Virus record (IMG/VR): IMGVR_UViG_3300010151_000055
Coordinates: 1-35,306 of that record
Source: a virus
Taxonomy: Duplodnaviria; Caudoviricetes
Direction: 5' to 3' (one strand)
Length of the DNA: 35,306 nucleotides
The notes below the pieces were generated by a model. The model was given only the letters and a program-made list of their open reading frames with translations. It was not told where the DNA came from and did not search any database. Position 1 is the stretch's first letter. Each line of letters begins with the position of its first letter. A program made the position numbers and the translations under genes. Shown here piece after piece: positions 4,724-34,754 of the stretch.

Positions 4724-6614
4724 GATAGAACTCTCGTCAGGCAAATACGACAACTTTGAGAAGTTTGCCGAGAAGTATCTGTATATACAGACAAAGGCTG
4801 GTGAGCTATCAAACTTTGCGTTGAACAAAAGCCAGAAGATCAGGGAGTCGCTAATCACTGAGATGGAGGAGAAGGGTGTTCCTGTTAGGGTGTGGGAGGC
4901 AAAGGCTCGGCAGCTTGGTTGCAGCACACACATCCAAGGCAGGATGTTCTGGCGTTGCGTTACCAACAGAGACGAGACAGCGCTTGTAGCCGCACACGCA
5001 GACCCAGCGGTGCACAGCATCTTTACAAAGTCGAAGGTCTTCTACGACAACCTGCCATCAGAGTTGAAGCCACTCACCAAGTACAACAACAGGGCAGAAC
5101 TAGATTTCAGAGCGCCGTCTGGGCCACTTGGCTTGAGGAGTCGCTTTGTCGTTATGACCGCGAAGTCCACTGAGGACGCTAGGTCAGCAACAGCAAGAAA
5201 TGTCCATTGCTCAGAGGTCGCCTTCTACAAGAGGCCTGAAGAGTTCTTCTTAGCAACTCTTCAGACTGTTCCTGATGAGCCAGGAACGACGGTTTATGTG
5301 GAGTCCACCTGTAGGGGTACGGGAGACTTTCATCACACGATGTATCTGAATGCGAAGCTGTGGTGGGACGACGATCCACCGCCGTGGATGGAGCTAAAGA
5401 AGAAGTACCCAGGAAATCCAGACTCAGAGTGGTATGCGCTGTTCACTCCTTGGTTTCTCATGGATGAATACAAGAGCAAGCTCAAGTGCTCAGAGAAGGA
5501 CTTCATAGCAAGCCTTGATTACGCAGAGACGGAGCTACTGAACAAGTTTGGCGAGTGGGTGACTCTGGAACATCTCCAGTGGCGCAGGCAGTCAATCATG
5601 ACCAAGTGCGGTGGTTCCATAGACAGGTTCCACCAAGAGTATCCGTCAACAGATGAGGAGGCATTCAGCACATCTGGAAGTCCAGTATTTGACCGCACAG
5701 CGCTTGAGTCTATGGAGGTGTCGAGCGTCTGCTGGTGTGACATATGCAAGCCATACGCTGGTGCAGAAAAGCCAGATGGGAACACATGTCCTGAACACAA
5801 GTGGTACGAGATACTTGACGGTACGCCACGCTCAGATAGCAGCTACACAAGGAAGATGTCGTCAATAACCCCAATCCTCACAGAGACAACACCAGGGGCT
5901 GGGAGGATGTCTGTATGGAAGGAGCCAAAGAGGGGCAGTCGGTACATTGTTTCAGCAGACATAAGTAAGGGACCAATCAGTAAGGACTGGGACCACGTTG
6001 TTGTCTGGGACGTTGGCAGGATGGAGCAGGTTGCTGAGTGGCGAGGCAAGATTGAGCTAGACCAGTTCGCAGACATCTGCATCCTGATTGCACTTCACTA
6101 CAACAAGGCTGTGCTTGCTCCAGAGGCTACCGGCATTGGCGCTGGCGTTATTGCAATGATAGAGCGCGCTGGGTATTGGAACCTGTACAGACGGCGCACA
6201 GTAGATAGTTGGCACGGCTCAACCGGCATGCTTGGTTGGGACACAAACCAGAAGACAAAGCCGGTGATGGTTGGTCTCGCTCAGAGAGCCATCAAGGAGT
6301 CGTACTCAATCGTTCGGTCTCGCTCCATATATAACGAGCTTCGTTCATACATGATGACCCTACAGTTTGACGCTGAGGGCAGGGAACTAGAGGCGGCTAA
6401 GTTCACAGCACCGTCAGGCAAGCACGATGACGCATGCGTTGCCTTCATGATTGCAAACGCAGTTGCCCATTACTCTCCTGGGCATGGCACAGGAAAGGGG
6501 CCAATGGTTGGAAGGAACATGCTGTTAAGCCAGCACTGGAATCACAGCGACTGGGACGAGTACGAAAAGATGCATGAAAAGCAGCTTAAGTTTACGCTTG
6601 GGAAGCGACGATAG
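4680..6614 (+). CDS. terL: Terminase large subunit
   Basis: Walker A KARQLGCST, Walker B VHCSEVAF, coupling motif VEST, QEYP, and RNase H-like nuclease motifs SADISKG, APEATG and HDDACVA. Confidence 0.95.
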   Translation: MAGQRRKQNYTESPEIELSSGKYDNFEKFAEKYLYIQTKAGELSNFALNKSQKIRESLITEMEEKGVPVRVWEAKARQLGCSTHIQGRMFWRCVTNRDETALVAAHADPAVHSIFTKSKVFYDNLPSELKPLTKYNNRAELDFRAPSGPLGLRSRFVVMTAKSTEDARSATARNVHCSEVAFYKRPEEFFLATLQTVPDEPGTTVYVESTCRGTGDFHHTMYLNAKLWWDDDPPPWMELKKKYPGNPDSEWYALFTPWFLMDEYKSKLKCSEKDFIASLDYAETELLNKFGEWVTLEHLQWRRQSIMTKCGGSIDRFHQEYPSTDEEAFSTSGSPVFDRTALESMEVSSVCWCDICKPYAGAEKPDGNTCPEHKWYEILDGTPRSDSSYTRKMSSITPILTETTPGAGRMSVWKEPKRGSRYIVSADISKGPISKDWDHVVVWDVGRMEQVAEWRGKIELDQFADICILIALHYNKAVLAPEATGIGAGVIAMIERAGYWNLYRRRTVDSWHGSTGMLGWDTNQKTKPVMVGLAQRAIKESYSIVRSRSIYNELRSYMMTLQFDAEGRELEAAKFTAPSGKHDDACVAFMIANAVAHYSPGHGTGKGPMVGRNMLLSQHWNHSDWDEYEKMHEKQLKFTLGKRR

Positions 6615-7320
6615 AGTAGACACCCCTGCCAACACGTTTGATTTCGTTATTCTTGAGCGAGGCAATCCTGTTGATAGCAGAGGGTGCTATCCCAGTTGAC
6701 GTAGCGATGTCTTTCAGCTTGCTTGGGCCGTTGTTCTTGAGATAGAGCGCAACTGCTGCTGCGTTGGTCTTCTTTGCCTTAACGACCTCAGCGTCTCTTT
6801 CGAGGGCGACCTTCTTTGCAGCGCGCTCGCTACGAAGCTCTTCAACCTCTTTGGCTATGTTGTTTGGTGCCTTCGGGGGGGGAGGCGTTTCATCTCCGAC
6901 TCTCCAGACGATAGGACGGTCTGCCTGTTCCTTGGGCTTGACCTCTTCTATTAGTCCAGTCTCTTCGCTCTTCTTGTAGACCCGCTTCTGGCTAGACTCT
7001 TTGGGTGTACCGCTGTAGTCGGTGTCTCCCTGCACACGACCAACCTCAGAAAGCTGCCTGTCGCGTTCTTGCTTTGTATAGAACTCCTTGCCCTTAAGCC
7101 CTGGGCTTGCATGTCTCCCCCAGGTCCCCTTAACGGTCAGGTTGGCTGGTGCCGAGTCGCTTGGGTAGCAACGAACTATTGTCCCGAAGCTGCCGCAGTA
7201 AACACAGCGAACGTCTCTGAACCCGTCTTCCTTAGACCTCATGTACAGGTCTGGCTTGGTTGCGTACTCAAACTCCATCCCGCATGTGGAGAAGGTGCAT
7301 TGCATTGGATAAAAGGCCAT
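6592..7320 (-). CDS. FmdB-like zinc-ribbon protein with a C-terminal winged helix
   Basis: N-terminal Y..QC....CG..FE...CVYCGS; C-terminal YLKNNGPSKLKDIATSTGI...IKRVGRGVY; coupled to the portal stop codon. Confidence 0.75.
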   Translation of the reverse strand: MAFYPMQCTFSTCGMEFEYATKPDLYMRSKEDGFRDVRCVYCGSFGTIVRCYPSDSAPANLTVKGTWGRHASPGLKGKEFYTKQERDRQLSEVGRVQGDTDYSGTPKESSQKRVYKKSEETGLIEEVKPKEQADRPIVWRVGDETPPPPKAPNNIAKEVEELRSERAAKKVALERDAEVVKAKKTNAAAVALYLKNNGPSKLKDIATSTGIAPSAINRIASLKNNEIKRVGRGVYSIVASQA

Positions 7321-9308
7321 TAGTTACTTCCTTTCGGCATTCCTGCTAAGCCACCAAACATACCCGGTCCTGGGGCTGCTTGTTGTCCAGGCCTTGGCTT
7401 AGGACCAGACCCGGCTAGTGATTCTCCCCCAGGACCCATTCCCTGGTCTTGAACGTTCTCTGGCCCAACAGGGCCACCCTGTCCACCGCCCTGTCCACCC
7501 ATTCCAGGCATTGCCTGAAGCTCACTGAGAGGACCAACAAGGGCCTTCTTGTCTTCAGCCCACACAGAGAATGCCTTGTCCATAAAGTTCTTCAGCGCAT
7601 CTGGTGGTAGCAGTCCGTTTTGAATCATTGGTGCAATGGTTGCGGCTGTCTGTTGAATTGTTGCTAGGAGACCGAGATAGGCTCGTTGTTCAGATGCCGG
7701 GTCAGACGGCATCATCGATCCTATCTCGACCTCAACGTCGAATTGACCTGTAATGTCTTCTCCAGAAACCACAACAAAATCATCTTCACCACCAGCCCCA
7801 GCAACGCGCAGATACCTGGGCTCGTCCCAATACTGTCGCTGTATGGCAACCATGTGCCTTGCTACTGCTTTGATGAACTTGTCGATTGCCCTGACTCTGT
7901 ATGCGGCTCTGCCTTGAGTTGCCCTTGAAGAAATGGCTACCTCAGTTGCTGTGGTGCCCTTCCTGCCGGTGCCGCCCCGCTGGTACACGTCGATACCAGA
8001 CATCTCGTATATGAGCTTCTGAAGCCCGTTGAGGACTAGATGCGTGGTCTGTGGGGGCTCAGCTACCGGGACCGGGAAGATTGCATCACCAGCCCTCTGG
8101 AGAGACGCAGGAACCTCAAAGCATTCCATATCTTGAGATGACTCAAGAACAGCCTGAACCTCGTTAGATTCAAGTAACCCAGAGATGACAGCGTACTTCC
8201 GGTTTCTCGCTCTGCGGTGGTGGGCAAGTATGTGGTCCCACTCTTCGTTAAGTCGTGAAGCAAGGTCCTTTATCATCGCTATGTCAGAAATCTTTGTGCT
8301 GTAAAAAGCGCCGGGAGCCTTCACAAAGCGCATGTCGATGTACGGGTATCCACGAATCATCAGTGGGTCGTCTATGTGACGAACAACTGTCTCCTTCATG
8401 GTTACGCCATCTTGCTGATTCACAAGCCAGAGAATGCGTCTGCGGGTTCCCTTGCGTGACCTGCTCCAATACCTGATTTCATACAGGCTCACATACTCAG
8501 GCTCTACCTTTGGCTTATCTGTCCCGTTCAGACCGTCACCCTCTGGAGTGAGTCTTTCTGGTATCCCGTCCATGAGCCACTCGTTCGGCTTAAGTTTTGA
8601 CGGAACAATGAACCTGTCGTCTGCGCGAAGTTCCTCTAGGCGAACTGTCATGCGTTCTGCAACCCAAGGGCATTTGCGTACCTCGTTGTACCCAGGAGGC
8701 ACTAACAGGTTCCACGGTGCGACACGCTCAAGCGTTGGGTTGTCTACAGGACCATCGTCCATGATGAGCATTTCTTCTGCCAGTGCACGGCTTAGCGCTC
8801 GCTTTGCCTCGTTGTCTAGCAGCCCATCGTCGCTGTCTTCCTCAATCTCAGGCCCAACGTCGTAGTCTTCTTCTGTGTAAAAAGCTCCAGCAGGGTCATA
8901 CCCAACCTTGCCAATACCAACACCAAACATAAGAGCGTCAGTAGCCACCTCTCTCGTAGACTCTGTGCACTCGCCCTCTCTCCAGGCGTATTGCACTGCG
9001 ACCTGACCCTTCTTTGCAGATTCTTTGTCTTGAGACCTGCGTGGCTTTAGCTTTATGAATGGGTCTGCGGACACTATTGCAGGGAGTATCGAGTTTGAAG
9101 TTGATAGCAAGAAGTTGATGTTTATATTTTCATCATCATCGCCATAGCCAAGCCCGTATTCCCCAAAGTCAGAGTTGCCGCTGTACTCGTTGTAGATGGA
9201 TTTCCACTTTGGTAGGTGGTTCTCTTCTATGTATTCCTCAGCATAACGAACTCTGTCATGCCAAGCTTCTACCTCTTGGGGCTTGATTTGTAGTTTTCTT
9301 TTTGACAC
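7320..9308 (-). CDS. Portal protein (P22-like)
   Basis: 662 aa; motifs DALMFGVGIGKVGYD, ERVAPWNLLV, TATEV, YWDEPRYLRVAG and GQFDVEVEIGS; Gly/Pro/Gln-rich tail; lies between terL and scaffold. Confidence 0.9.
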   Translation of the reverse strand: MSKRKLQIKPQEVEAWHDRVRYAEEYIEENHLPKWKSIYNEYSGNSDFGEYGLGYGDDDENININFLLSTSNSILPAIVSADPFIKLKPRRSQDKESAKKGQVAVQYAWREGECTESTREVATDALMFGVGIGKVGYDPAGAFYTEEDYDVGPEIEEDSDDGLLDNEAKRALSRALAEEMLIMDDGPVDNPTLERVAPWNLLVPPGYNEVRKCPWVAERMTVRLEELRADDRFIVPSKLKPNEWLMDGIPERLTPEGDGLNGTDKPKVEPEYVSLYEIRYWSRSRKGTRRRILWLVNQQDGVTMKETVVRHIDDPLMIRGYPYIDMRFVKAPGAFYSTKISDIAMIKDLASRLNEEWDHILAHHRRARNRKYAVISGLLESNEVQAVLESSQDMECFEVPASLQRAGDAIFPVPVAEPPQTTHLVLNGLQKLIYEMSGIDVYQRGGTGRKGTTATEVAISSRATQGRAAYRVRAIDKFIKAVARHMVAIQRQYWDEPRYLRVAGAGGEDDFVVVSGEDITGQFDVEVEIGSMMPSDPASEQRAYLGLLATIQQTAATIAPMIQNGLLPPDALKNFMDKAFSVWAEDKKALVGPLSELQAMPGMGGQGGGQGGPVGPENVQDQGMGPGGESLAGSGPKPRPGQQAAPGPGMFGGLAGMPKGSN

Positions 9309-9399
9309 AGTTGGTTCCTACTTGACAAAGGGGGTTGGTTAACCCCTAGAGTTTGTAATTGCTTGACGATGATTGTTAAGCATTGGAGATGAAAAGCCA
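9301..9399. promoter_or_regulatory. Divergent intergenic control region between portal and scaffold
   Basis: TTGACA at 9302 and 9322, TTGACG at 9363, and the inverted repeat GGGGTT-GGTT-AACCCC at 9331-9346. No canonical -10 box at 17-bp spacing (TAGAGT lies 19 bp from the 9322 box). Confidence 0.5.
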
Positions 9400-22160: not shown

Positions 22161-25100
22161 TTGCCTACTGAAGAAACGGGTCTTGATTACATAGACACTG
22201 GTGAGCAGCCTCTGCCTGTTGAGGGTGGTGCGCCGCTTATTCCAGAAGACTTAGATGCGTACATAGATAGCAAGCTTGACTCTTTCTACGCTCAGAGGGA
22301 GATGGAGCCCGTTGATGTAGAGCCCGTTGATGTAGAGCCTCAGCCGCTACCAGAAGAGCCAGCCACTATTTCTCTTGAAGACCTTGATTCGCTATTTCAG
22401 CAGTTCATTACTGACAGAGAAAACGAAGCTGCTGGAGAAGGGGAAGAGGAAGAGGAAGAGGAAGCCTGGAAACAGGACATCTACATACCTGACCTCTCTG
22501 TTGAGTTCCCAGAGCACATGCTTGCGGGCACTGGTTATCAGAGCGATGCAGCAGTTCGTAACGCTTGGTACGAGACAGTAGACAACGTTAACGGCACAGA
22601 CGACATGAAGGAGAGGGCTGAGTACCTCAAGGAGTTCGTCACCAACTGGCAAGAGGATTTAGCCCAGGAGGCAATGGCAGCGGCTGGGGCAGAAGAAGAC
22701 TCAACTGGCTTCATGTGGTTGATGAAGTGGGTTGATATATTCTTCCAAGACCCGACCCTGAAGTCTGGCATTGCTGCAAGCAAAGATTTCGGCGAGCGGG
22801 CGCTTAAGCAGGTTGGCGACCAGGGGTTGTTTGCTGCCGCCCTTGACCATGCAACTGACCCTCGTGGGCACGCAACCCAGTTTGCTGCTGACATGGTTCG
22901 ACACTATGACCAAAAACATCATGGCTTCATGGGTCCGACAGGCGCACAGACCATGGAGGACCTTAATTGGCTTCTTGGTACAGGACCATCTGTTCTTTGG
23001 GACGATGCCTATAGAAAGCAGAGGCTTGATGCAGCAGAGGCAGTAGATGCCGGGGCTACGCCACTGCGAGATGCGTGGAACGAGATAACGTGGGCTGGGG
23101 CTGAGGCAGCATCAGGCCTTGGCTCTTTCACGCTTACTCCGACCGGCATGGGTTCTGTTGACATAGGTTACTCAGGTGGCGGGCTAAAGCCCCAAGACGA
23201 TGGAATAGACCTAAACCCAGCCCTTACAAGAGAGCGCGATTACGACAAAGCCATAGAACATACGTGGGAGGCAGCGGCAGGTATTGGTATCGGCGTAGTC
23301 AACCCATTCAACCTTGTTCCTCTTGGCGCAATGGTACGGGGTGGTCGTCTCTTAAAGCATGCTGGGGTGTCCCTGACCGATACAGGGAATGCGTTTAGGA
23401 GCACCCTTGTAGAGAGGTTGTTCAAAGAGCTTGAACTCTCTTCAGATATGACAGGCATGTCTGACGACCTTGCTAAGGAGACCAGTCAAGAGCTTCGTGC
23501 GATGGCTGAAGACATCGCTGATAGACAGCTTGTTGATGCAGTAGACACTGCTGGTCGTCACAACATCGTGCTTCGCGGAACAGACGAAACCATAAGCAGT
23601 CTTGATGCCCTTAGGAGACTGCTTGGTCATCAAGATGGGGAGAACGTGTGGGCTGCTGCGCTTAGGTCAGCAGAGAAGGAGGGCAAGGCACTTGATGACA
23701 TTGTGGTCAGGCCTAACCAGATTAGGTACGCAGATGACGGAACAATAAGAATTGCTGGCTACTCTGATTCGGCAGTAAAGAAGAACAAGGTTTCGCAGTT
23801 GTTTGGCGAGGATGGGCCATTTGTTCTTAGGTACGGAGATGACATCAAGCCAAGCAATCTAGACCCAGGCAAGGGCAGAATAACTAGGTGGAACGACGCT
23901 TCAATGACGCGTTGGGCTGCTAAGGCAATACATAAGCAGCCTTGGCTTGAGGCAGTACGCAGACGACTACCTGTTGTTGCCAGGGGTTCTCAGCCACTTG
24001 CGACAAAGCTTGGCACAAGGAAGTTTGCCTACAGGGCACACGTTGGAACCAACCCAGAGACCAATGAGGAGTTCGCCAGATACCTACATCCTGCTAGATG
24101 GGCGAAGTTACCAGAAGAGCAGCGAGAGTTCATGCATCAGCTTTCTCTGTCTGGTCAGAGGGGCAGAGAGCTTGAGTCAAAGATGAAGAACGTAACCAAC
24201 GACCCAGAGGAACTGGTGTTGGTTAGTGACTATCTGGAGATGGGTTGGGCTGATGAGCTTTCTACTGACCAGATTGAGCGTGTTGTTGGCATCAGGACTG
24301 CTGGTAAGGCAGTAGAAAAGCTTGAGGCTGGCGAGAAAATCCCAGGCTCTGTAGCTAGTAAGCAGTCGTTTGAGTCTCTTGAGAAGGCGCACACGCTCCT
24401 TAAGGAGAAGGGCGTTGAGCTAGAGACACTGAACAAGTTGCGAGAGGACTACATAGCGAACAGACCGATGCGCTCAGAGTTGCTAAAGCAGGCTGGTGCA
24501 GAGCTTAAAATCCTCAAAGGGCTAGAGGAAGAGCGTTTCAGAGACACGCTCACTAGGACGTATGAGCTTGGCGCTATAGCTGAGGCAGAAGCGTCTGGGA
24601 TGATAGAGAAGCTCAGCGACCTAAGGTCAGCGCGAGATGAGATAGACAAGTTGCTGAAGGCTGAGGTTCAGCCTGGGACACCCCTTGGGAGGGCGCTGGA
24701 CAACTTAATAGCAGAGGCCAAGGGACGTGGTTTCGATGTTGATGTCCTGAGAGAGGGTGTTGGTCCTACCGTCATGACCGACGAGGCTTTGAAGTCTTGG
24801 AGGCAGACAATACAAGATCAGGCTAAGGAGTCGGCAGAGGCCTCAGGCATAGGGCCGAAGGAGGTCAAGGATATTAGTGAGCTTCTTGATAGGCGCTCAG
24901 TTGTCTGGGGGGCTCTAAACAACAGTCGTCCAAACGAGTGGTACTGGCTAAAGTTTAAGGGGATAAGGTACGCAAAGCTTGCAGACACAGAGCTTCATGA
25001 GGCGATGCTTACTCATGCTACCGAGTACGCACCTGTGTTCTTCTCAGAGCTTATGCGTGTTGTTAAGCAACAGTACGAAGGCGTTGAGTGGGTAGATACA

Positions 25101-28100
25101 GAGCGCTTGTACAACACGCTTAAGAGGCACGGTGTTAAGGCAGACGAGATTGAGTACGGCGGTAGCCTTAGTGACTTGAAGGCTTGGCTGGACGGTGATG
25201 GAGTATCTGCCAAGTCTGCGGACTCTGCGTGGGGCAGAGAGAACAGCCGTCTGTTGTCGGAGCAGAGAGACGCAGACGCTGCCCTTTCAAGGGTCACTGT
25301 TGACGGCACTACGGAAGAGATTGAAACCGCAACAAGAAACCTTCGTGTCGTAAGAGACAGGCTCTCTAAGCACTCCAGGCGAGTTCACAAAGACGACTTG
25401 ATTAAGTTCTTTGACGAGCATGCTGTTGAGGTTGATTTCAAGGTGTCTGGTGAGGGGCGCACTTCTTGGGGTCTTAGTGAATACGACGAGGGCGGTGGCC
25501 TTGAGGTGTATGGGGGCACCGACTACAAAGAGGCGAAGATAGTCATAAAGAGGCCTGATGGCTTTACTGGCGGCACCTATCAGTCATCACACTTCCCAGA
25601 AGCAGACATACTTCTTCACATCAGGTTCAACACAAGAACCAGCGAAGATGGAAAGAAGGTTCTCTTCATAGAGGAGATGCAGTCCGACTGGCATCAGGAG
25701 GGGCGGGAGTATGGATACCGAGGCGCTGTTGATTTTGAGACAACGCCCCTGACCGAGCTTGAGGATGTTGTTTTTGCTGCAAACAAAGAATACGCAGATG
25801 CAGCGACTGGTTTGCTGCCTTTCGCTGATGAGTGGCCTGAGGTTTCTGTTGGTTCATGGTATGAAGACCCTGCTACTGCTGCCCATGTAGCCGACCTCTG
25901 GGGCGACTTAGGCTATCTGGGGGCGCGTCTCGCTGAATATGCTGGTCATCAACTCAAGGTGTTAAAGATAAGGCCCTATTGGTCGCCTAACAACCTTAGT
26001 CAGGTGCAGGTTGAGTCGTTGTTTGACAGCGGCTTCAGAGACCTGTGGCGAGCCATGTCTGTGGAAGGCAGGCGAGAGCTACTGAATAAAAACCTGATGT
26101 CTTTCGGCATCATAGACCAGGCTGGTGCAGCTAGGCCATACAGCGCATCAGAGCAGATGTCTGACGCTGGTATGAGGGCCATGTCTTCCAAGACGGCATA
26201 CGAAGATATGTACCAAGTCTTAGACGCCTTAGAACCTAGTCAAGTCGCCTCTGCAAGCCCTGTCTTCAATAGCGTGCTTGGAAGGGCAAAGAGAGCCATG
26301 CAGGGCCATGCTGTTGAGACTAGGAGGATAATAGACGACACAAACTGGGGTGATTATATAGACACCGGAGAGGGGGCTATTGAGATAGGTGGTGTTGGCG
26401 TCCCAGACGCACCATTCAAGGAGTCATGGCATCAGCTTGGGATGAAGCAGATGGTTCGCTATGCGGCAGAGAATGGGTTTGACCGCATAGGCTGGACAAC
26501 AGGGCATGAGCAGGCTGCTGTCAGGTATGGAACAAGAAAGACATACAAAGACAGCGTAGAGGCCTGGGGAACGTTCGTAGACGAAGACGGTGTAGAGAGG
26601 GCTCTCCTTGTTGGGAGAGAACACAAGGGTGGCGTGCCTATTGACGACATCCCTGGAGACCTTCCCGGCGACCTTAGGCACTACGAAAACAAGAAACACC
26701 TAGAGGCTGGCATTAGAAGGGCAGAGCGTAGTGCAGTATCAATGGGGCCTGAGCCAGGACGCCTGGGCGTTACTGAGGCTGTCAGGACACACATAAAGCT
26801 CCGCAAGCCACTAACCCTTGGCGGCAAGGGACACATAGAGTTCTATGACAACAAGCTGAAGAACTTCACCAACAAGAGATACAAGAGGTTCGGCGTTAAG
26901 GTTGGCGAGGACTCTATAGACCTGTCGGTGTACGCTAATAAGCTATCTGATGCTACGCAGTCTGCTCAGAGAGCGTCTGACATCCTCATTAGGGCGAGGG
27001 ATTCAATTCGCCCTCCCGGCCCTCATCCCAAGAGGTCTGGTCAGTCACAGGTAGACGCTGGCATTGAGGCGCTGCACCAGATGACTTCACCGCGATCTAA
27101 ATACGTATTGACGGAGCGGAGCATAGACGACTCTTATGTGCAAGAGCTAATAGAGCTTGTTGATACTTTCGACGTAAAGCCGTGGTTCATAAAGAACGGT
27201 CGCTTTGACACTAGCGACTCCTTAAATCACATAAATAGACTGGGACAACGACAAAGCGTAGGTATGCGTACTGCTGCTGGCGATGAGGTTCCGTTAGTTG
27301 TTACAGATAACGCGCAAAAGATGAAGATGCTGTGGGACGCAGTTGATGTAGAGTCTCGCATATCCTCTAGAGCCGAACTCGGGTTTGACAAAGCTCTTCG
27401 CAAAAGAGCCTACAAAAACATTCACGCAGACCCAGAGGACGCGGCAGTCATGCCAATGAAGTACGGCGGCACTGTCCCGTACCACGCTATTGACGTAACC
27501 CCTGAGCTTAAGGCTCATGTTCTTCGTAACGGTGAGGCACTGTTCCAGGGACCGAAGCGCTCTGCACCAGGGCAAGCGGGCGCACCAAAAGGCTGGCTAG
27601 AGAATGAGTTGGTAGAGCTAAAGTCTGTCGGCAAATCTCTTGGTGTTAGCGGAAGGATTTACACTGGCTCTGCTGCGCCTGAATACAGGTTCCACGTAGG
27701 CCCTTCAAAGATGACCATGAGCGGGGAGCTTGACACCCGCACAAAGGCATACCGGAGTGCCGAGGATGTGTCTGCTGAGCTTAGGTCTCTTGGGTTTGAG
27801 CCAGAGATTACGACGACATCTACGCTGACAAGACCACCGGGTTCAACGTCTAGCGTGACTCCGCGACTTGTTGTCTCTGTTCGTCCGAGAAGGCCAGAGC
27901 GCCTTGGAGTGCTGTCAGAAGAGGACTATAGAGAAGCCGCAAAGTGGAACAGGGACATACAGGTACGCCCAGACGCTGACGAGCTTTCAAGGCAAGCAAG
28001 GCTTAAAGAGCTTGAAGATGAGGACGTGTTCGACAGCCCAGAGTTCCAGCGTTGGTTTGGCGACTCAAAGGTTGTCGATGAGGCTGGCAAGCCGTTGAGG

Positions 28101-31100
28101 GTTTATCACGGCACTCCAGAGGGCCGGTTTGATGAGGCTGCTAGGGGTTCAAACCTTGAGCGGGAGAGAGTTCTTTCTGAAAGAGAACGTGTTCAGGGCG
28201 ACATTGATGCTGGGCACGAGCTTTTGCGAGAAACCCCAAGAGAAGCGCCGCACTGGTCTGATAGGGATGCGTTTCTCAGAGAGGACATGCAGGCCCTTTA
28301 CAGAGAGAAGGAAGGCCTTGTTGCGCCAGCGAAGAGGGCCGAGGAAGAGATATTCAGAACACGCTCCACTGGTCAGACCGACTGGGGCTACAAGGCTAGC
28401 GGAGCTTACTTCACCGATAGCCGAAAGGTGGCAGAGGGGTATGCAGGCAGCAGGGCTACTAAAACCCCATATGTTTATGAGACATATCTATCAATAAAGA
28501 AGCCATACATTGATGGCGTTACAAAAGACGCAGCGTTTAGCAAGGAGTTGGCTGAGAGAATTGATCGCGCCCAGAGAAATCAAAGGCCAGAAAAATGGTT
28601 GGAGTCTCGTGAAAGGGAAACTGCCCTGATTCGCCGTCAGGTTCTGCAAAAGCATGGATACGACGGAGAGATATGGAAGCAGGCTGACGGAAGCTCAGAG
28701 TATGTTGTATTCAACCCAAGGCAGATTAAGTCCACACAGAACGTAGGGACCTTCGACCCAGAAGACCCACGCATCCTTTATCAGACAGGACCAACGGCAG
28801 GTCCTCCCGGTGGAGGGTCTGGGTGGAGAGGCCCAAGAGGCGCTGTTGAGTTTGAAGAAGGCAGGGCAATAATCACCCTGTTTGAAAGCGCAGACTTCTC
28901 CACTCTGGTGCATGAGATAGGGCACATCTTCCGCAGAGACATGAGCGTTAAGCAGTTCAAGCAAGCTGTTGCCTGGGTTCGCTCAGAAGGCTTTGAAGTA
29001 TCTAAGTCTGGTGTCTGGTCGAGAGAGGCAGAGGAACACTTTGCTGAGCACTTTGAGCGCTACATAGCAAGTGGCTTCGCCCCAACACCGGACATGAAGA
29101 ACCTGTTCCAGCGATTCAAGACTTGGATGAAAGAGCTATACAGGGAGATTGCTGCTCCATCACCAGAGATAGCCAGGGTCTTTGACGACATGCTTGGCGA
29201 GTCAAAGATGGTAACGCCAGAGAGCCTGAAGAAGCTTCGTGGTCGCGTTAGACAACTGCAAAAAGCAGCTAAGAATCTCCCTGACAAGGAAGAGGTTAAC
29301 AGGCGTGTCACAGAGCTAGGCAGGCTTAATGAAGAGATTGCTGACCTTGCTTTGTCACGAATACATGACTTCACAGACGAGAAGACAGCGGGAGTGATAA
29401 GGAGCGTAGAGGACATAGCTAATCAGCTAGCAGACCTTGGCATTGACGTTAGTGGTGTGTCTCACGCTTGGGCTGAAGACTTGGAGCGAATGGTTAGTGG
29501 CGGTAAGGCAGACCTTCACGAGGCGAAGCTCTGGGAGAAGCAGCAGAACCTCAAAGAAACGCAAGCAAAGATAGCCACGCTTATTGATGACATTGATAAG
29601 CAGTTGGATGAGGTCATTGAGAGTGCTGAGCTTGGCGTGAGAGTGTATCGAAGCGACCTGGAGCGCGAACTCGTCCACGGCACCGCTGGAGGGGTGGCCT
29701 CAGCAAGGAAGCTATTAAAGACAGCAGAGGATGAGTTGGTTGTTGCAAAGGCTACAAAAGAGACTGGCATAAAAGACTCTGCCCTTCTCAAGTCATTCCA
29801 CGATGCGGCACCTAACCGAGCCGTTCCGTATGATCTAAGGAGATGGACTCACAATCTAGCAAAGCTACAGGCTGAGGAGATTCAAGCGTTTGCCCCGTAC
29901 CAACGACCTCTGGGGGACATAAGGTATCCAGCCCCAGGCTCAAAGGTTAAGTACGACCAAGAGACCAACTCTCTAGTGCCAGACACAGTTCACCCACAGG
30001 AGGCTCAGAAGCTCAGAGAGTGGCGGGAGCGAATTGAGACTCAGGTCAGGACTGGGTTTGTTACCGACAAGTACGCTGATGCCGTCATTGCCGTAATGGA
30101 TGCAAGGGCTAGGTCATGGGCATCTTCGTTTGATACACCCAAGAACCCAGACGCTTGGTATTACGGACGCATATCTAACATTAACTTTGGCAAGCCTAGA
30201 ACTGGCATGTTCGGGTTCTCTCAAGTCCTTGGCACTCGTGGTTGGGACTTACAGAACCTTGGCATTCGTGGGAGGACCATCAATCCCATTGAGGCCCTTG
30301 CAAGGGGCGCTCAAGCAACCATTGACGTACTTACTGGTGGAAAGAGGATTAAGACAGCATCGCAAAGAAAGAGGGGCGCAGATGTTTTGATTCACGAGCT
30401 TGGTCACATATTCCAGTTCGACACAAGCCCAGCGCAGCGCGAGGTGGTTAACCAGTGGTTGAGAAGGCACGTTGGCGACAAGGCATTTGTTAAAGAAACA
30501 GGGCTGTGGTCAACAACTGGCGAGGAGTTGTGGGCTCGTGCATTTGAGAGGTATTTCTACGATGGGATTGCCCCCACAAAGGCACTTGAGAAGGTATTTA
30601 AGAAGTTCAGAGACTGGATATTTGATGTATACGCGGCAGTCACTGGTACTGCCATAAACGTAGACATCTCTGATGATATTAGGCGTGTCTTTGACGAGCT
30701 TCTGACCGCATCTGACGACTTGCCAGCAAAGAAGATCGTCTATGAAGAGGGGCCTATTCGTTGGACACCACTTCATGGGAGAAGGGCACTTAAAGAGACA
30801 GTCAGGAAAATCGGGCTTCAGGTAGTGGACGAGATAGGTCGTCTGTCTTCGATGAACCTTGGGGACGACGCTGCCCGCATACAGACATATATTGAGCAGG
30901 CCAAGGCACACGTTGCTGAGGCTGAGCCACTTCTTAACAAGCCCATTAGGGTCAGGACAAAGCGTGGCGATAAGTCGGTGAAGCCCTATCACGAGGTCAT
31001 TGGCGACCTGCCCTACAGGAAGTCGATGCAGTACAAGTACCGACAGGGCACCGACGTAGAGCGAATAACGTCAATACTGATTGAAGACGCAACAAAGCGG

Positions 31101-34100
31101 TACGGGTTCCGCTTCCCCAAGAAGCAGAAGTACTCGCCAGTAAAGGCGGGCTTGTCTGGTAACGAGGTAGACGCTGTTGTCTTGAGACCAGAGGCTGGAT
31201 GGAAGCTTAAGCTGGTTCCAATAAAGTCTGCCGCGAACATATCTGTTGACACTGTGGAGCAGTTGGTCATCGACGCTATGGACGTATACAGCAAGGCTAA
31301 TGGCCCATTCTCCATAGAGGTTGTTGGTGAGAAACTGGCAAAGGGTGCTGCAAAGCGCCTTGGCATGACCGCTCGTAAGATAAAGGGGAAGGGGGACCGC
31401 TGGTACGTTAAGCCAGGGCGCGGTGTTGATGTAGAAGAAATCTTCGGTCGTATAGAGCGAGCCAGGGCAGAGGAAGGAATAATTAAGCCTGATGTTGTCC
31501 CTGTCATTAAGAGAAACACAGATGAGTACAAGCTCGCTCGTGCAATGGCGAAGATGTATGACGATGAGATACGTTCAGTTCGCAACACACTAGACTCGTC
31601 TATGGCTAGCGCCAGGAGGAAGGCTAGGGAGGTAGCAAAGATAAAGGCAAAGGAGTCGCTCCAGACTCTTGTAGAGGCAAGCAAGAACAAGCCAGCCCTC
31701 GATGCTGCCATTGATGCCCTGACAGACGAGCAGATTGCGTGGGTTTCTGGCAGGGCCGCTGACCCCCCCTCTAAGGAAGCTGTGTCCTCCATGAAGGAGG
31801 TTGGCGAGCGTGTGCCAACAGACCTGCCATCAGCGCGCCTAGCAGCCGCTGAGATGGATGTCCGCGCACTTGAACTGAAGCGCTTGGCTAAGGAACTTGA
31901 TTATGACCTGAGAGACCCAGGTGATGTCTGGCGTGAAATTGAAGAGCCAAGAAGGTCGTCTAAGGCACAGGCTGCTGTGCTTGAAGCGCAGTACAAGCTA
32001 GCAAAAGGTGCGTTCCTTGATGACGAGTTAGCAAAGTGGCTCGACCGTCTATCGAAGGACGACAGGGGCAAGGTGCTGAGGGCTGTTAAGAAGAAGGAGT
32101 TCCACACACTTCCAGACGACATAAACGAGAACGCACTTAAGGTAGCGCGGCTTCTCAAAGAGTTCTTTGACGAACAGCTTAAGAGGCTTCAGGAGGCTGG
32201 GTTCCTCAAAGACTTCGACAAGAACGAGTTCTTTGCTCGTGTTGATGTCGCTGGGTACATTCCTCACATCCTGAACTGGGCTGCAAAGAAGAAGCTTGAT
32301 GCAATAAAGGGGCGCTTCCCGTCGTTAAGTAAGCCAGGAAACCTCAAAGAGAGAAAGATTAGCAGGCTACTAACACAGACGAACGACTGGAAACGAAGGG
32401 AGGTTGCTGAGGCAATCATCCACCACAAGGCATCTGCTGGTGAGTTTGGCGACCAAGCTGTGAATGCCGGGAGGTCTGGAACCCTCAAGAATTATGTCAA
32501 CAACTCAGACATGTTCCGCAGGGGACAGTCTGCGTCTGCGTGGGACGAGCTTGTTGAGCAGACCCTGAAAGATGCGGGGCTTGAAGAGGTGTACGACTTC
32601 TTCAATATGGACCCAGTGTTAACTGCCACTCAGTATTTGCAGTCAACAGACAAGGCAATAGCCAAGACCATGCTCATAGACAACATCCTAGAGATGTTCC
32701 CTATGGGCAGAGAGTTTGCAGAAAGGTTTGATGCTCATCAGGCAGACCTGATAGCTGCTGAGCTTGGGTTTGCGAAGCTGTCTAAGGTGGACTTCCTTGA
32801 GTCTGTGATGAGGGTGAGGCTACCGACTGGCCTCAGAAAGTTTGAGTCATACATAAGCACAAGGCTGGCTAATGGAGACCCTGTTGGAGAGATACTTACT
32901 GGTCTTCGTGAGCAGGGTGTTGGCATAGACAGGGAGATACCGAAAGAGGTCATACAGGCGTTTAAGAAGAATCAGGTGTATGTGCCAGAGCAGGTTGTTG
33001 AATACCTTCGTTGGATGAACTCTGCTGATACGTTTGGAGCGTCCTGGCCTGGACAGGCACTCGATGGTCTGCATGCCTTGGCTAAGGCAATGGTCACAAT
33101 CGCAGCACACGCACACATAGGCATGAACTGGTCTGGCAATGTCTTCTCCATGTCTCAGCAGATTGGCCTTCGTGCAATCAATTTCATGAACTGGATTGAT
33201 GCCATGAAAATATCTATGGCTGGTGCTGATGCTGGCAAGTGGGCTGATGACGTGCTTGACCTTGGCGACGAGAGCATGACCTACAGGGAGTGGAACAGGT
33301 ACACGAACGAGAGGCATGTTGCTGATGTTCATGGAGGTTCTCCCTTTGCTTCAGAGCAGCTAGGCGCAATAGAGGGCTACCAGCAATACGGCAAAAGGAC
33401 TGGCGCTGGGCTTGTTGGTCAAGTCGCAGGCGCTGGGGTTGGCTACGCGGCTGGTGCCGCTACCGGGATTCCGTTTGCTGGCGCTGCCGGTAGCTTTCTT
33501 GGTGCTCAAGTTGGGAGTGCCTTGGGTGAGCTTGGGATAATGGGTTGGAAGGCGTTTAGTAACGAGGCAGTCAGTGAGTTTTTTAACGCAGTAGAGGCGC
33601 TGTCTTCGTCCCCTAAGAATACAATCTTATACGGAGGCAAGCGGATAGTTGGTACTGCTGTTGGCGCAACTGTTGGCTCTACACTTGGTCCGCTTGGTAC
33701 GGCTATGGGTGCCGTTCTTGGCGGCATGAGTTTCCCCTCATACGTCAGGGTCTTGACTGGTCTTAACCAGGGTGTTGAGGCAACCAGTAGATTGACCCTC
33801 ATGGTTGGCTCAATGAAGAGTGGGCTAAACATGGACGAGGCAGTCAAGTCAGTTAATGCTGCACTTAGGGATTACGGAGACCTGACACCGTTTGAGAGGG
33901 ATGTGCTTAGAAGGTTCTTCTTCTTCTACACATGGGATGCCGGTAACGTTGCGTTCCAACTCAAGTGGATGGTCAAGAATCCAATGCAACTGCACATTGC
34001 AAACAACTTCATGGCTGGGATGTACAAGGGCGCGTTCACTGAGCAGGAGGCTGCGCTACTGCCAGAGCATATGCGCTGGAAGATACTCCTTAGACTGGCT

Positions 34101-34754
34101 GCTGCTAAGGTCATAACGATACCTGGGCTACCAATAGACGCATTCATTTCAAACATAAGGATGGATGAGAAGTTTAGGCCAGTGGGTCTCCTATCAAGGG
34201 TAAGGCCAGACCTAGCCATGCTGTTTGAGTGGTCGTTTGGCGACCAGTACAGCATGCATTACGGCAAGGGCTGGTCTCAGCTAACCAACGCAAGGCATAT
34301 AAAGAACACGCCTCCGCTGCTTAGGCGAGCCGTTGGGTTGCAATACTCAATGGTTCCTGTCCACGATAGGTACGGAGAAGAGACTGGCCTTATGAAGGAA
34401 GAAGTTAGGGCAGAGAGGCCAGAACTGTGGTACTTGATGCAGAGACTTCCTGGATACAGGGTGTTGATGGAATACAACAAGATTGTTACCGACTCGTTTA
34501 TGTCTCGCGCCTTGGACAGCGGCGACCCAACAGCAGAAGCGAGCGAGATTGAAAGAGCGCTGGCATTTGGTTTTGGCGCACGTCCTTATCACATTGACTT
34601 TGATGGTCAGGCAGAGTGGGTTGCAAGTAGACTTACAGAGGCCTTGTTGGATGCCATAAACAGCCAACAGCCATATGCAGTGACTAGGTTTGGAACCTTG
34701 AGAGAAGAAGGCTTTGAGGACTATACTAGCGAGGACAGGCGCGAGCGCCATTAA
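22161..34754 (+). CDS. Giant (4197 aa) polyvalent internal virion/ejection protein with two HExxH zincin modules, an ADP-ribosyltransferase-like domain, an EEMQSDW domain and glycine zippers
   Basis: Uninterrupted 12.6-kb ORF with a TTG start after AGGTG; HEIGH at 28911, HELGH at 30393, YHGT/GAYF/EYVVF at 28104-28712, EEMQSDW at 25671; C-terminal DYGDLTPFER...FFYTW. Confidence 0.85.
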   Translation: MPTEETGLDYIDTGEQPLPVEGGAPLIPEDLDAYIDSKLDSFYAQREMEPVDVEPVDVEPQPLPEEPATISLEDLDSLFQQFITDRENEAAGEGEEEEEEEAWKQDIYIPDLSVEFPEHMLAGTGYQSDAAVRNAWYETVDNVNGTDDMKERAEYLKEFVTNWQEDLAQEAMAAAGAEEDSTGFMWLMKWVDIFFQDPTLKSGIAASKDFGERALKQVGDQGLFAAALDHATDPRGHATQFAADMVRHYDQKHHGFMGPTGAQTMEDLNWLLGTGPSVLWDDAYRKQRLDAAEAVDAGATPLRDAWNEITWAGAEAASGLGSFTLTPTGMGSVDIGYSGGGLKPQDDGIDLNPALTRERDYDKAIEHTWEAAAGIGIGVVNPFNLVPLGAMVRGGRLLKHAGVSLTDTGNAFRSTLVERLFKELELSSDMTGMSDDLAKETSQELRAMAEDIADRQLVDAVDTAGRHNIVLRGTDETISSLDALRRLLGHQDGENVWAAALRSAEKEGKALDDIVVRPNQIRYADDGTIRIAGYSDSAVKKNKVSQLFGEDGPFVLRYGDDIKPSNLDPGKGRITRWNDASMTRWAAKAIHKQPWLEAVRRRLPVVARGSQPLATKLGTRKFAYRAHVGTNPETNEEFARYLHPARWAKLPEEQREFMHQLSLSGQRGRELESKMKNVTNDPEELVLVSDYLEMGWADELSTDQIERVVGIRTAGKAVEKLEAGEKIPGSVASKQSFESLEKAHTLLKEKGVELETLNKLREDYIANRPMRSELLKQAGAELKILKGLEEERFRDTLTRTYELGAIAEAEASGMIEKLSDLRSARDEIDKLLKAEVQPGTPLGRALDNLIAEAKGRGFDVDVLREGVGPTVMTDEALKSWRQTIQDQAKESAEASGIGPKEVKDISELLDRRSVVWGALNNSRPNEWYWLKFKGIRYAKLADTELHEAMLTHATEYAPVFFSELMRVVKQQYEGVEWVDTERLYNTLKRHGVKADEIEYGGSLSDLKAWLDGDGVSAKSADSAWGRENSRLLSEQRDADAALSRVTVDGTTEEIETATRNLRVVRDRLSKHSRRVHKDDLIKFFDEHAVEVDFKVSGEGRTSWGLSEYDEGGGLEVYGGTDYKEAKIVIKRPDGFTGGTYQSSHFPEADILLHIRFNTRTSEDGKKVLFIEEMQSDWHQEGREYGYRGAVDFETTPLTELEDVVFAANKEYADAATGLLPFADEWPEVSVGSWYEDPATAAHVADLWGDLGYLGARLAEYAGHQLKVLKIRPYWSPNNLSQVQVESLFDSGFRDLWRAMSVEGRRELLNKNLMSFGIIDQAGAARPYSASEQMSDAGMRAMSSKTAYEDMYQVLDALEPSQVASASPVFNSVLGRAKRAMQGHAVETRRIIDDTNWGDYIDTGEGAIEIGGVGVPDAPFKESWHQLGMKQMVRYAAENGFDRIGWTTGHEQAAVRYGTRKTYKDSVEAWGTFVDEDGVERALLVGREHKGGVPIDDIPGDLPGDLRHYENKKHLEAGIRRAERSAVSMGPEPGRLGVTEAVRTHIKLRKPLTLGGKGHIEFYDNKLKNFTNKRYKRFGVKVGEDSIDLSVYANKLSDATQSAQRASDILIRARDSIRPPGPHPKRSGQSQVDAGIEALHQMTSPRSKYVLTERSIDDSYVQELIELVDTFDVKPWFIKNGRFDTSDSLNHINRLGQRQSVGMRTAAGDEVPLVVTDNAQKMKMLWDAVDVESRISSRAELGFDKALRKRAYKNIHADPEDAAVMPMKYGGTVPYHAIDVTPELKAHVLRNGEALFQGPKRSAPGQAGAPKGWLENELVELKSVGKSLGVSGRIYTGSAAPEYRFHVGPSKMTMSGELDTRTKAYRSAEDVSAELRSLGFEPEITTTSTLTRPPGSTSSVTPRLVVSVRPRRPERLGVLSEEDYREAAKWNRDIQVRPDADELSRQARLKELEDEDVFDSPEFQRWFGDSKVVDEAGKPLRVYHGTPEGRFDEAARGSNLERERVLSERERVQGDIDAGHELLRETPREAPHWSDRDAFLREDMQALYREKEGLVAPAKRAEEEIFRTRSTGQTDWGYKASGAYFTDSRKVAEGYAGSRATKTPYVYETYLSIKKPYIDGVTKDAAFSKELAERIDRAQRNQRPEKWLESRERETALIRRQVLQKHGYDGEIWKQADGSSEYVVFNPRQIKSTQNVGTFDPEDPRILYQTGPTAGPPGGGSGWRGPRGAVEFEEGRAIITLFESADFSTLVHEIGHIFRRDMSVKQFKQAVAWVRSEGFEVSKSGVWSREAEEHFAEHFERYIASGFAPTPDMKNLFQRFKTWMKELYREIAAPSPEIARVFDDMLGESKMVTPESLKKLRGRVRQLQKAAKNLPDKEEVNRRVTELGRLNEEIADLALSRIHDFTDEKTAGVIRSVEDIANQLADLGIDVSGVSHAWAEDLERMVSGGKADLHEAKLWEKQQNLKETQAKIATLIDDIDKQLDEVIESAELGVRVYRSDLERELVHGTAGGVASARKLLKTAEDELVVAKATKETGIKDSALLKSFHDAAPNRAVPYDLRRWTHNLAKLQAEEIQAFAPYQRPLGDIRYPAPGSKVKYDQETNSLVPDTVHPQEAQKLREWRERIETQVRTGFVTDKYADAVIAVMDARARSWASSFDTPKNPDAWYYGRISNINFGKPRTGMFGFSQVLGTRGWDLQNLGIRGRTINPIEALARGAQATIDVLTGGKRIKTASQRKRGADVLIHELGHIFQFDTSPAQREVVNQWLRRHVGDKAFVKETGLWSTTGEELWARAFERYFYDGIAPTKALEKVFKKFRDWIFDVYAAVTGTAINVDISDDIRRVFDELLTASDDLPAKKIVYEEGPIRWTPLHGRRALKETVRKIGLQVVDEIGRLSSMNLGDDAARIQTYIEQAKAHVAEAEPLLNKPIRVRTKRGDKSVKPYHEVIGDLPYRKSMQYKYRQGTDVERITSILIEDATKRYGFRFPKKQKYSPVKAGLSGNEVDAVVLRPEAGWKLKLVPIKSAANISVDTVEQLVIDAMDVYSKANGPFSIEVVGEKLAKGAAKRLGMTARKIKGKGDRWYVKPGRGVDVEEIFGRIERARAEEGIIKPDVVPVIKRNTDEYKLARAMAKMYDDEIRSVRNTLDSSMASARRKAREVAKIKAKESLQTLVEASKNKPALDAAIDALTDEQIAWVSGRAADPPSKEAVSSMKEVGERVPTDLPSARLAAAEMDVRALELKRLAKELDYDLRDPGDVWREIEEPRRSSKAQAAVLEAQYKLAKGAFLDDELAKWLDRLSKDDRGKVLRAVKKKEFHTLPDDINENALKVARLLKEFFDEQLKRLQEAGFLKDFDKNEFFARVDVAGYIPHILNWAAKKKLDAIKGRFPSLSKPGNLKERKISRLLTQTNDWKRREVAEAIIHHKASAGEFGDQAVNAGRSGTLKNYVNNSDMFRRGQSASAWDELVEQTLKDAGLEEVYDFFNMDPVLTATQYLQSTDKAIAKTMLIDNILEMFPMGREFAERFDAHQADLIAAELGFAKLSKVDFLESVMRVRLPTGLRKFESYISTRLANGDPVGEILTGLREQGVGIDREIPKEVIQAFKKNQVYVPEQVVEYLRWMNSADTFGASWPGQALDGLHALAKAMVTIAAHAHIGMNWSGNVFSMSQQIGLRAINFMNWIDAMKISMAGADAGKWADDVLDLGDESMTYREWNRYTNERHVADVHGGSPFASEQLGAIEGYQQYGKRTGAGLVGQVAGAGVGYAAGAATGIPFAGAAGSFLGAQVGSALGELGIMGWKAFSNEAVSEFFNAVEALSSSPKNTILYGGKRIVGTAVGATVGSTLGPLGTAMGAVLGGMSFPSYVRVLTGLNQGVEATSRLTLMVGSMKSGLNMDEAVKSVNAALRDYGDLTPFERDVLRRFFFFYTWDAGNVAFQLKWMVKNPMQLHIANNFMAGMYKGAFTEQEAALLPEHMRWKILLRLAAAKVITIPGLPIDAFISNIRMDEKFRPVGLLSRVRPDLAMLFEWSFGDQYSMHYGKGWSQLTNARHIKNTPPLLRRAVGLQYSMVPVHDRYGEETGLMKEEVRAERPELWYLMQRLPGYRVLMEYNKIVTDSFMSRALDSGDPTAEASEIERALAFGFGARPYHIDFDGQAEWVASRLTEALLDAINSQQPYAVTRFGTLREEGFEDYTSEDRRERH
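22305..22339 (+). repeat. 15-bp in-frame tandem repeat (EPVDV x2.3)
   Basis: GAGCCCGTTGATGTA x2 followed by GAGCC. Confidence 0.9.

Follow-up and report, generated by a model that had tools for sequence, protein, structure and literature searches.

A giant phage polyvalent protein with a zincin predicted to be split around an exchangeable cargo slot, and Q-ending tags at cassette borders

Two zincin modules in the giant open reading frame

The virus record IMGVR_UViG_3300010151_000055 (Caudoviricetes; CheckV completeness 64%), here called the window, was analysed over its full length of 35.3 kb (35,306 nucleotides). Its last large gene, which follows the tail and internal-protein genes, is a stop-free open reading frame (ORF) for a polyvalent protein of 4197 amino acids (aa). 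Two zincin modules are present in this protein, each composed of an N-half and a C-half; a long array of other domains lies between the halves of copy 1, and the corresponding place in copy 2 is nearly empty. The features are as follows:

22161..34754, + strand, giant polyvalent protein gene
24759..24977, + strand, zincin copy 1, N-half (aa 867-939; helices and predicted strand beta1, aa 931-937)
24975..28832, + strand, cargo slot 1 (1286 aa, predicted beta1-beta2 loop)
28833..29210, + strand, zincin copy 1, C-half (predicted beta2 and beta3, HEIGH at 28911-28925, E2292 at 29034-29036)
29976..30194, + strand, zincin copy 2, N-half (aa 2606-2678)
30192..30308, + strand, slot 2, almost empty (39 aa, modelled as a low-confidence loop)
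30309..30719, + strand, zincin copy 2, C-half (HELGH at 30393-30407, E2789 at 30525-30527)

A preliminary description of the window had aligned both pairs of halves by eye, and both alignments proved sound. The N-halves (aa 867-939 and aa 2606-2678) align with a score of 65, which none of 2000 shuffles attained (maximum 52), and the N-half of copy 2 (N2) finds that of copy 1 (N1) as its best match within aa 1-2600 (0 of 300 shuffles). The C-halves C1 and C2 (aa 2249-2330 and aa 2743-2827) score 162, again with 0 of 2000 shuffles as high, and a weak similarity of both copies reaches ~90 aa further upstream (score 53, 1 of 1000 shuffles). Hidden Markov models (HMMs) of the two halves, built from 46 compact homologous modules only and with the window left out, gave 16.3 bits for N1, 34.4 for N2, 114 for C1 and 103 for C2, against decoy maxima of 4.7 (N, the reversed decoy likewise 4.7) and 5.0 (C). 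The significant similarity of the N-halves, on which the description had staked its proposal, was thus recovered. The metal-binding signature was read correctly as well: HExxH occurs as HEIGH at aa 2251 and HELGH at aa 2745, followed on the second C-terminal helix by E2292 (invariant in 35 rows) and E2789 (in a column conserved to 90% or more across 46 rows). Since self-BLAST of the whole protein returned the diagonal only, a comparison in chunks was needed, and it recovers both pairs of halves. A locus search using copy 1 alone found no loci.

The preliminary description had put the halves about 1270 and 70 aa apart; the contrast stands, and the values, which had been taken with looser ends, become 1286 aa in copy 1 and 39 aa in copy 2 between core elements. 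Its term 'duplicated' is right in that there are two modules and otherwise goes too far. The copies are 30% identical over aligned columns and rank 144th and 117th of 166 among each other's relatives; of the 20 largest among 34 DNA repeat families, none connects the two. Because they are so divergent and are not mutual nearest relatives among 167 modules, duplication within the gene is not demonstrated, and a recent tandem duplication is not supported.

Phage polyvalent proteins with a zincin-like metallopeptidase (MPTase) were described by Iyer, Burroughs, Anand, de Souza and Aravind in 2017 (PMC5512222, accessible part). The giant protein belongs to them, as it joins unlike predicted activities in one chain (two zincins, an ADP-ribosyltransferase (ART) and a GNAT-fold cassette), and to the CLCA_X/PHROG 9880 zincins: phrog_9880 matches two stretches of the ORF, which are the two zincin copies, and ART-PolyVal is the sole Pfam match. 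The full-length ORF recurs in four further database entries with 1-5 differences each, so that an assembly chimera as its origin is not supported.

The cargo slot: contents, occurrence and place in the fold

Slot 1 contains the following units:

25005..27548, + strand, cassette A (aa ~949-1796; family with an EEMQSDW motif and its own inserts; GNAT fold predicted in a homologue; ends ALFQ)
27549..27992, + strand, unassigned cargo segment X (aa 1797-1944)
27993..28784, + strand, ART-PolyVal cassette (aa ~1945-2208, with a ~70-aa insert; PF18760; ends ILYQ)

The cargo had been called enzyme-like, which is apt for cassette A and ART; segment X could be assigned to no family, and no usable match was found for it, ESM Atlas included. 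The ART cassette matches PF18760 with 77.7 bits (cut-off 31.2), and its H-Y-D residues, assigned by eye, are H1983, Y2083/Y2094 and D2168. Cassette A is without a Pfam model, gave no match of 0.9 in ESM Atlas and matches its family profile in four pieces. A structure model of its homologue from locus L016 has the GNAT fold with large inserts (Z 10.4, root-mean-square deviation (rmsd) 3.5, 149 residues aligned to 8g8k) and resembles NatD, Elp3, AtaT and TacT with Z 8.6-9.2; the top two matches are domains of M. tuberculosis ICL2 and inform on the fold only. By fold, cassette A is predicted to belong to the GNAT superfamily, and it may carry out acyl-CoA-dependent transfer. The inserts within the cassettes (25005-28784), two of ~200 aa in cassette A and one of ~70 aa in ART, have no match among the collected proteins. 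Cassette A also occurs in stand-alone proteins of 500-900 aa (L097, L123, L130, L141, L144, L177 and others), where the GNAT-fold domain is followed by a short hydrophobic stretch rich in Ala, Gly and Pro.

A profile of both halves matched 11,442 clusters at E <= 0.001, the best 150 of which were collected. In a survey of 189 proteins, a set that was picked with a two-half profile, favours proteins with both halves and contains the 46 training modules, the layouts were NC 146, C 26, NCNC 7, NCC 5, CC 2, NNCC 1, NNC 1 and none 1; the NCNC layout is seen in six other proteins, five of which have one filled and one empty module. They hold 167 N-to-C pairs, 60 of them near-empty (gap <40 aa) and 107 filled (77-1584 aa). 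HExxH is intact in 103 of the 107 filled modules. Eighty IMG/VR loci found via C-half motifs, a few of them duplicates, gave NC 45, NNCC 1, CN 1 and C 33; of their pairs, 8 are near-empty and 38 filled. Pooled and iterated, the searches place an N-half in 245 of 319 C-half proteins, with 257 of 258 N matches upstream of a C-half. Judged from these sequences, the slot is a family-wide trait. In one protein (P0035, aa 2209-3084, NNCC) the slot of an intact module contains a second, catalytically dead module that holds cargo of its own.

The position of the slot was derived from models. Structure prediction of copy 2, one of the checks proposed at the outset, with AlphaFold2 (AF2; 46 rows) gave a mean predicted local distance difference test value (pLDDT) of 77 and a predicted template modelling score (pTM) of 0.75; the order is three helices, a strand (residues 72-78), a disordered stretch (81-118), two strands (119-135) and the HExxH helix. 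An N-terminal helix and a three-stranded sheet are predicted in this model and in the copy 1 halves alike. As the copy 2 model matches the three-stranded MPTase core of PMC5512222, the slot is placed between strands 1 and 2, that is, within the zincin core in the predicted beta1-beta2 loop. Folded as two chains, N1 and C1 scored 0.91 and the best of three controls 0.01. Among solved complexes 116 of 157 attain the mark of this score, and among mismatched pairs 2 of 215; the mark applies roughly here (own alignments), and the two parts of a single domain are prone to pass through likeness to solved folds. At least 91% of contacts are shared between runs, with a partner pLDDT of 85 or more. In these models residues 931-937 are matched in register by residues 2236-2240, which makes beta1 parallel to beta3 and beta2 the predicted edge strand. 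The halves of copy 1 are accordingly modelled as reassembling around the cargo.

Some results tell against this placement. In the AF2 model of a natural stretch of N-half, cassette A and C-half from L016, built on 54 rows of which few contain both halves, the cassette is well folded and the zincin sheet does not form. The fold match is weak: the closest structural neighbours are zincins spanning both halves, with a best Z of 4.7, rmsd 5.1 and 149 residues aligned, and Foldseek found no PDB match at E <= 0.001 for either model, that of the zincin included. No solved relative was found by sequence in PDB, nothing lying below E 0.015. On another view nothing is nested: the N-half would form a small helical domain of its own, and the C-half would fold by itself. 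No N-half was detected in 74 of the 319 C-half proteins, some of which are incomplete, and the halves are unjoined in the L016 model; yet the gap shrinks to 0-5 aa in the most compact homologues, beta1 of the three-stranded core described in PMC5512222 (accessible part) comes from the N-half, and N1 and C1 pair strand to strand in the two-chain model. We regard an arrangement without nesting as highly improbable, and a split zincin around a cargo slot as highly probable.

The preliminary description had proposed a carrier with a defined slot for exchangeable cargo and had named invariant content among homologues as the opposite case. Content varies: homologues hold different domains at the same position, in different number and order. 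Besides ART, the slots of 40 scanned proteins contain the nucleases PBECR3 and PBECR5, topoisomerase IB, LPD23, LPD1 and RadC-like domains; P0051 has ART then cassette A, P0159 PBECR3 then A, and P0068 three ART-like units then A. None of five tracked cassette types was found in 38 of the 107 filled slots. In cultured phages the cargo is PBECR1 (BPP-1 Bbp10), ART (Caulobacter phage JessA gp39), PBECR5 (Carin1 of Cobetia, gp32) and GNAT (Lbo-JY46). The ART of JessA gp39 sits behind a closely similar N-half, and BPP-1 and JessA combine similar N-halves with different cargo. The N-half is above threshold in five of 11 named phages (the fifth is vir555) and below it in six.

On the zincin tree, the state filled or empty changes 39 times (10 forced by starred branches), cassette A 29 times (11 forced; shuffled 31.2) and ART 26 times (10 forced; shuffled 28.8). 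With cargo scattered at close to shuffled values, we conclude that it was exchanged repeatedly. Cassettes are found outside the slot too, so the slot is the favoured site and not the sole one; of the 'defined' slot, its place inside the zincin core in models is retained and its exclusiveness is not.

Q-ending tags at cassette borders

A feature absent from the preliminary description is a short tag, L/F/Y-x-Q, which stands at cassette borders and follows the zincin clade. Slot 1 has two:

27540..27548, + strand, LFQ tag at the end of cassette A (aa 1794-1796; candidate cut site)
28776..28784, + strand, LYQ tag at the end of ART (aa 2206-2208, 17 residues before beta2; candidate cut site)

Tag columns had been excluded from the N and C profiles. 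Among the 107 filled modules, LxQ is found at the slot start in 80 (background 11%) and at the slot end in 73 (background 9%); it also occurs at many seams between cassettes and at the ends of cassettes outside the slot. ORFs in loci fetched by cargo were then compared according to whether they have the window's zincin clade. All 20 ORFs that have it close cassette A with Q, against 13 of 102 that lack it (4 unparsed). For ART the corresponding counts are 23 of 24 and 3 of 63 (6 dropped), and the sole exception in the clade also carries a second zincin. Before the cassettes, the Q motif is present in 20 of 21 versus 17 of 108 cases for A, and in 19 of 25 versus 5 of 60 for ART. Where the clade is absent the cassette tails read IRFS, IRYS, ITRS or PLFS/A. 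On the cassette-A tree the zincin label is dispersed, changing 13 times; of six supported independent pairs there, 5.3 agree in direction and 0 run against it (median p 0.031).

No zincin column explaining the presence or absence of the tag was found, and the columns flagged reflect divergent sequences. In a subgroup (P0131, P0013, P0043 and P0007) the slot ends show LFK, LFA or LYM where the others have the Q tag, a possible specificity shift. Loci with other zincins (L101, L252, L261, L266, L292 and L294) have longer tags of their own at both cassette ends (FRLPGV, FEKKS, LTAAPP, IRKSEDR, QESSSL).

The tags could be recombination scars or microhomologies for cassette swapping, with no role in the protein, which we think quite improbable. 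It would fit the longer repeats that flank cassettes in proteins with other zincins and are specific to each protein (FRLPGV, IRKSEDR and FEKKS among them), the modest excess of identical codons at pooled shared residues (104 of 188 against 82.5 expected), and a near-empty slot (L028:7521-8225) in which two Q tags enclose nothing but the tail of cassette A, much like a deletion scar. Within the window's zincin clade, however, tag codons are the same in 23 of 41 cases against 23.0 expected, with all six Leu and both Gln codons in use, and silent changes occur even within the best repeats; a scar of three residues would not survive without selection between proteins less than 50% identical. The two roles are also not mutually exclusive.

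A zincin directed at a host protein or the cell wall would leave the tags to another protease and make the beta1-beta2 loop merely tolerant of insertions. An effector role is given as an alternative in PMC5512222, and a preprint on phi24B suggests peptidoglycan degradation for its different metallopeptidase (bioRxiv 10.64898/2026.04.10.717836), as far as the accessible parts of both sources go; 13 cassette-A ORFs (8 complete, 5 open) end in Q with no zincin of the window type in the fetched locus. This is improbable nonetheless, as the tag residue changes according to which zincin clade the ORF itself carries; Pfam and PHROG annotation recognised no prohead protease among the window genes, in a record that is 64% complete.

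The slot may also be real and the tags read but uncut: the zincin or some other component of the virion would bind them as signals for docking, latching or threading, and the protein would be delivered whole. Covariation with the zincin clade suits binding as well as cutting, and in the L016 model the tag that closes cassette A is part of an ordered block. N4 packages its virion RNA polymerase without processing, and ArdC and TraC1 undergo transfer as full-length proteins (PMC5512222, accessible part). We nevertheless consider it unlikely that the tags stay uncut: catalytic HExxH is retained in nearly all filled modules, as counted above, the tags stand at every type of seam in and outside the slot, like cut sites of polyproteins, and two of the three clearly dead filled modules are without a tag.

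Several of the data sit poorly with cutting at the tags. With p ranging over 0.031-0.25, the outcome of the tree-controlled test is marginal, and only two supported independent pairs come from the ART tree. LxQ is kept in only 18 of 60 empty slots (background 7%). Slot 1 of the window is tagged at two of four seams, the tag being absent at the slot start and at the X/ART seam, and slot 2 is without a clear tag. One dead module, P0134, keeps both tags. The end-tag block in the L016 model is well ordered (pLDDT 90), so that cutting there may need local unfolding. The N4 polymerase packaged uncut itself has such an MPTase domain (PMC5512222, accessible part).

Proposed processing, known relatives and gene setting

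Edge strands of zincins line the substrate cleft, and in the window the last tag would lie just before the edge strand beta2. With these points weighed, we think it moderately probable that the giant protein is packed and injected with its zincin split by exchangeable cargo, and that the zincin cuts this cargo free at Q-ending tags. The protein would be packed in the phage head and enter the host cell; its zincin halves would fold together around cargo held in the beta1-beta2 loop; the zincin would cleave at x-[F/Y]-Q or next to it, either within the head or once inside the cell; the released ADP-ribosyltransferase and GNAT-fold enzyme would modify host or phage molecules, and the cut zincin halves would stay paired as a two-chain protease. 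A wider proposal, somewhat short of probable, is that podovirus ejection proteins are widespread hydrolytic cassette carriers, with effector arrays in a protease loop, clade-matched tags and a protease surviving as two chains. Incoming cassettes would adopt the tag of the carrier, which would amount to a clade-specific cleavage code (x-F/Y-Q here; R-F/Y-S, T-R/K-S and others elsewhere).

Other self-processing carriers with a boundary motif include Rhs proteins (DPxG), CdiA (VENN) and viral 3C polyproteins cut after Q. They too combine variable effectors with a conserved carrier and mark the boundary with a short motif; their cargo is terminal or in line, whereas the array of the window protein is predicted inside the protease fold. 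Fibronectin repeats of gelatinases are a domain insertion in a zincin as well, fixed and not exchangeable.

The proteins of PMC5512222 are likewise giant late-gene products that join MPTase, ART and GNAT-type domains, with 1-5 MPTase copies per protein, and autoproteolytic release by these domains was predicted there with no sites given. Unlike the present account, the accessible part of that paper names neither cargo arrays in the beta1-beta2 loop nor a cut-site motif; the alignments on its FTP site might show the insert. The CLCA_X family seed is residues 700-1000 of Bbp10 from Bordetella phage BPP-1 (Lenart et al. 2013, PMC3650047, accessible part). Bbp10 has the window's type of C-half, and related CLCA proteins are described as self-cleaving; the seed, in contrast, spans the C-half side only, and the accessible part of that paper leaves the N-half (542-591) and the intervening PBECR1 cargo unmentioned. 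Bbp10 is also listed as an IVP-D homologue (PMC4819975, Table 2, accessible part). The window gene resembles those of T7 gp16/IVP-D ejection proteins as the last large internal-protein gene of a podovirus, the link being gene position and Bbp10 only, and phi24B gp47 is a polyvalent giant detected in virions (bioRxiv 10.64898/2026.04.10.717836, accessible part). They differ in that no swappable cassette slot or processing tags are reported for T7 gp16/IVP-D or phi24B gp47 in the accessible portions of these sources. In the literature searched, which has most subscription papers outside it and includes the accessible parts of PMC7824862, PMC9503650 and bioRxiv 10.1101/2021.05.28.446129, no description of the slot or the tag was found.

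The self-processing prediction of 2017 was made without cut sites, and the slot with its protease-matched tag makes it directly testable; JessA and Carin1, cultured phages whose hosts are harmless, share the split-zincin layout. Slot borders delimit candidate effector domains beyond the tracked types, as in the 38 filled slots mentioned above, and cassette A represents a common GNAT-fold family that Pfam does not model. If true, the proposed processing would show how phages exchange injected anti-host enzymes while the ejection scaffold stays undisturbed.

The other genes of the window, by Pfam and PHROG, encode a DnaB helicase, terminase, SU10/P22-type portal, scaffold, capsid, adaptor, tail and peptidoglycan-binding proteins; the virion genes (terminase, portal, capsid, adaptor, tail) lie upstream of the giant ORF. 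From this gene position and from its relatives, the giant protein is likely an ejection protein and likely packaged in the head and injected. Its 4197 aa include no cysteine. Its C-terminal carrier region (32142-34652, aa 3328-4164) is common to L061, L077, L079 and L081, all with the window's zincin clade. A weak and unexplained internal similarity links 25584-25814 with 30903-31154 (aa 1142-1218 and aa 2915-2998; score 65, 0 of 1000 shuffles), a pair that was chosen after an all-against-all scan and that no homologue backs. Between terminase and scaffold, the portal gene and a 242-aa ORF (6592-9308) are on the minus strand, divergent from the capsid genes, with no convincing inverted repeat flanking that segment. 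TTGACA-like boxes are found in the gap at 9308-9373.

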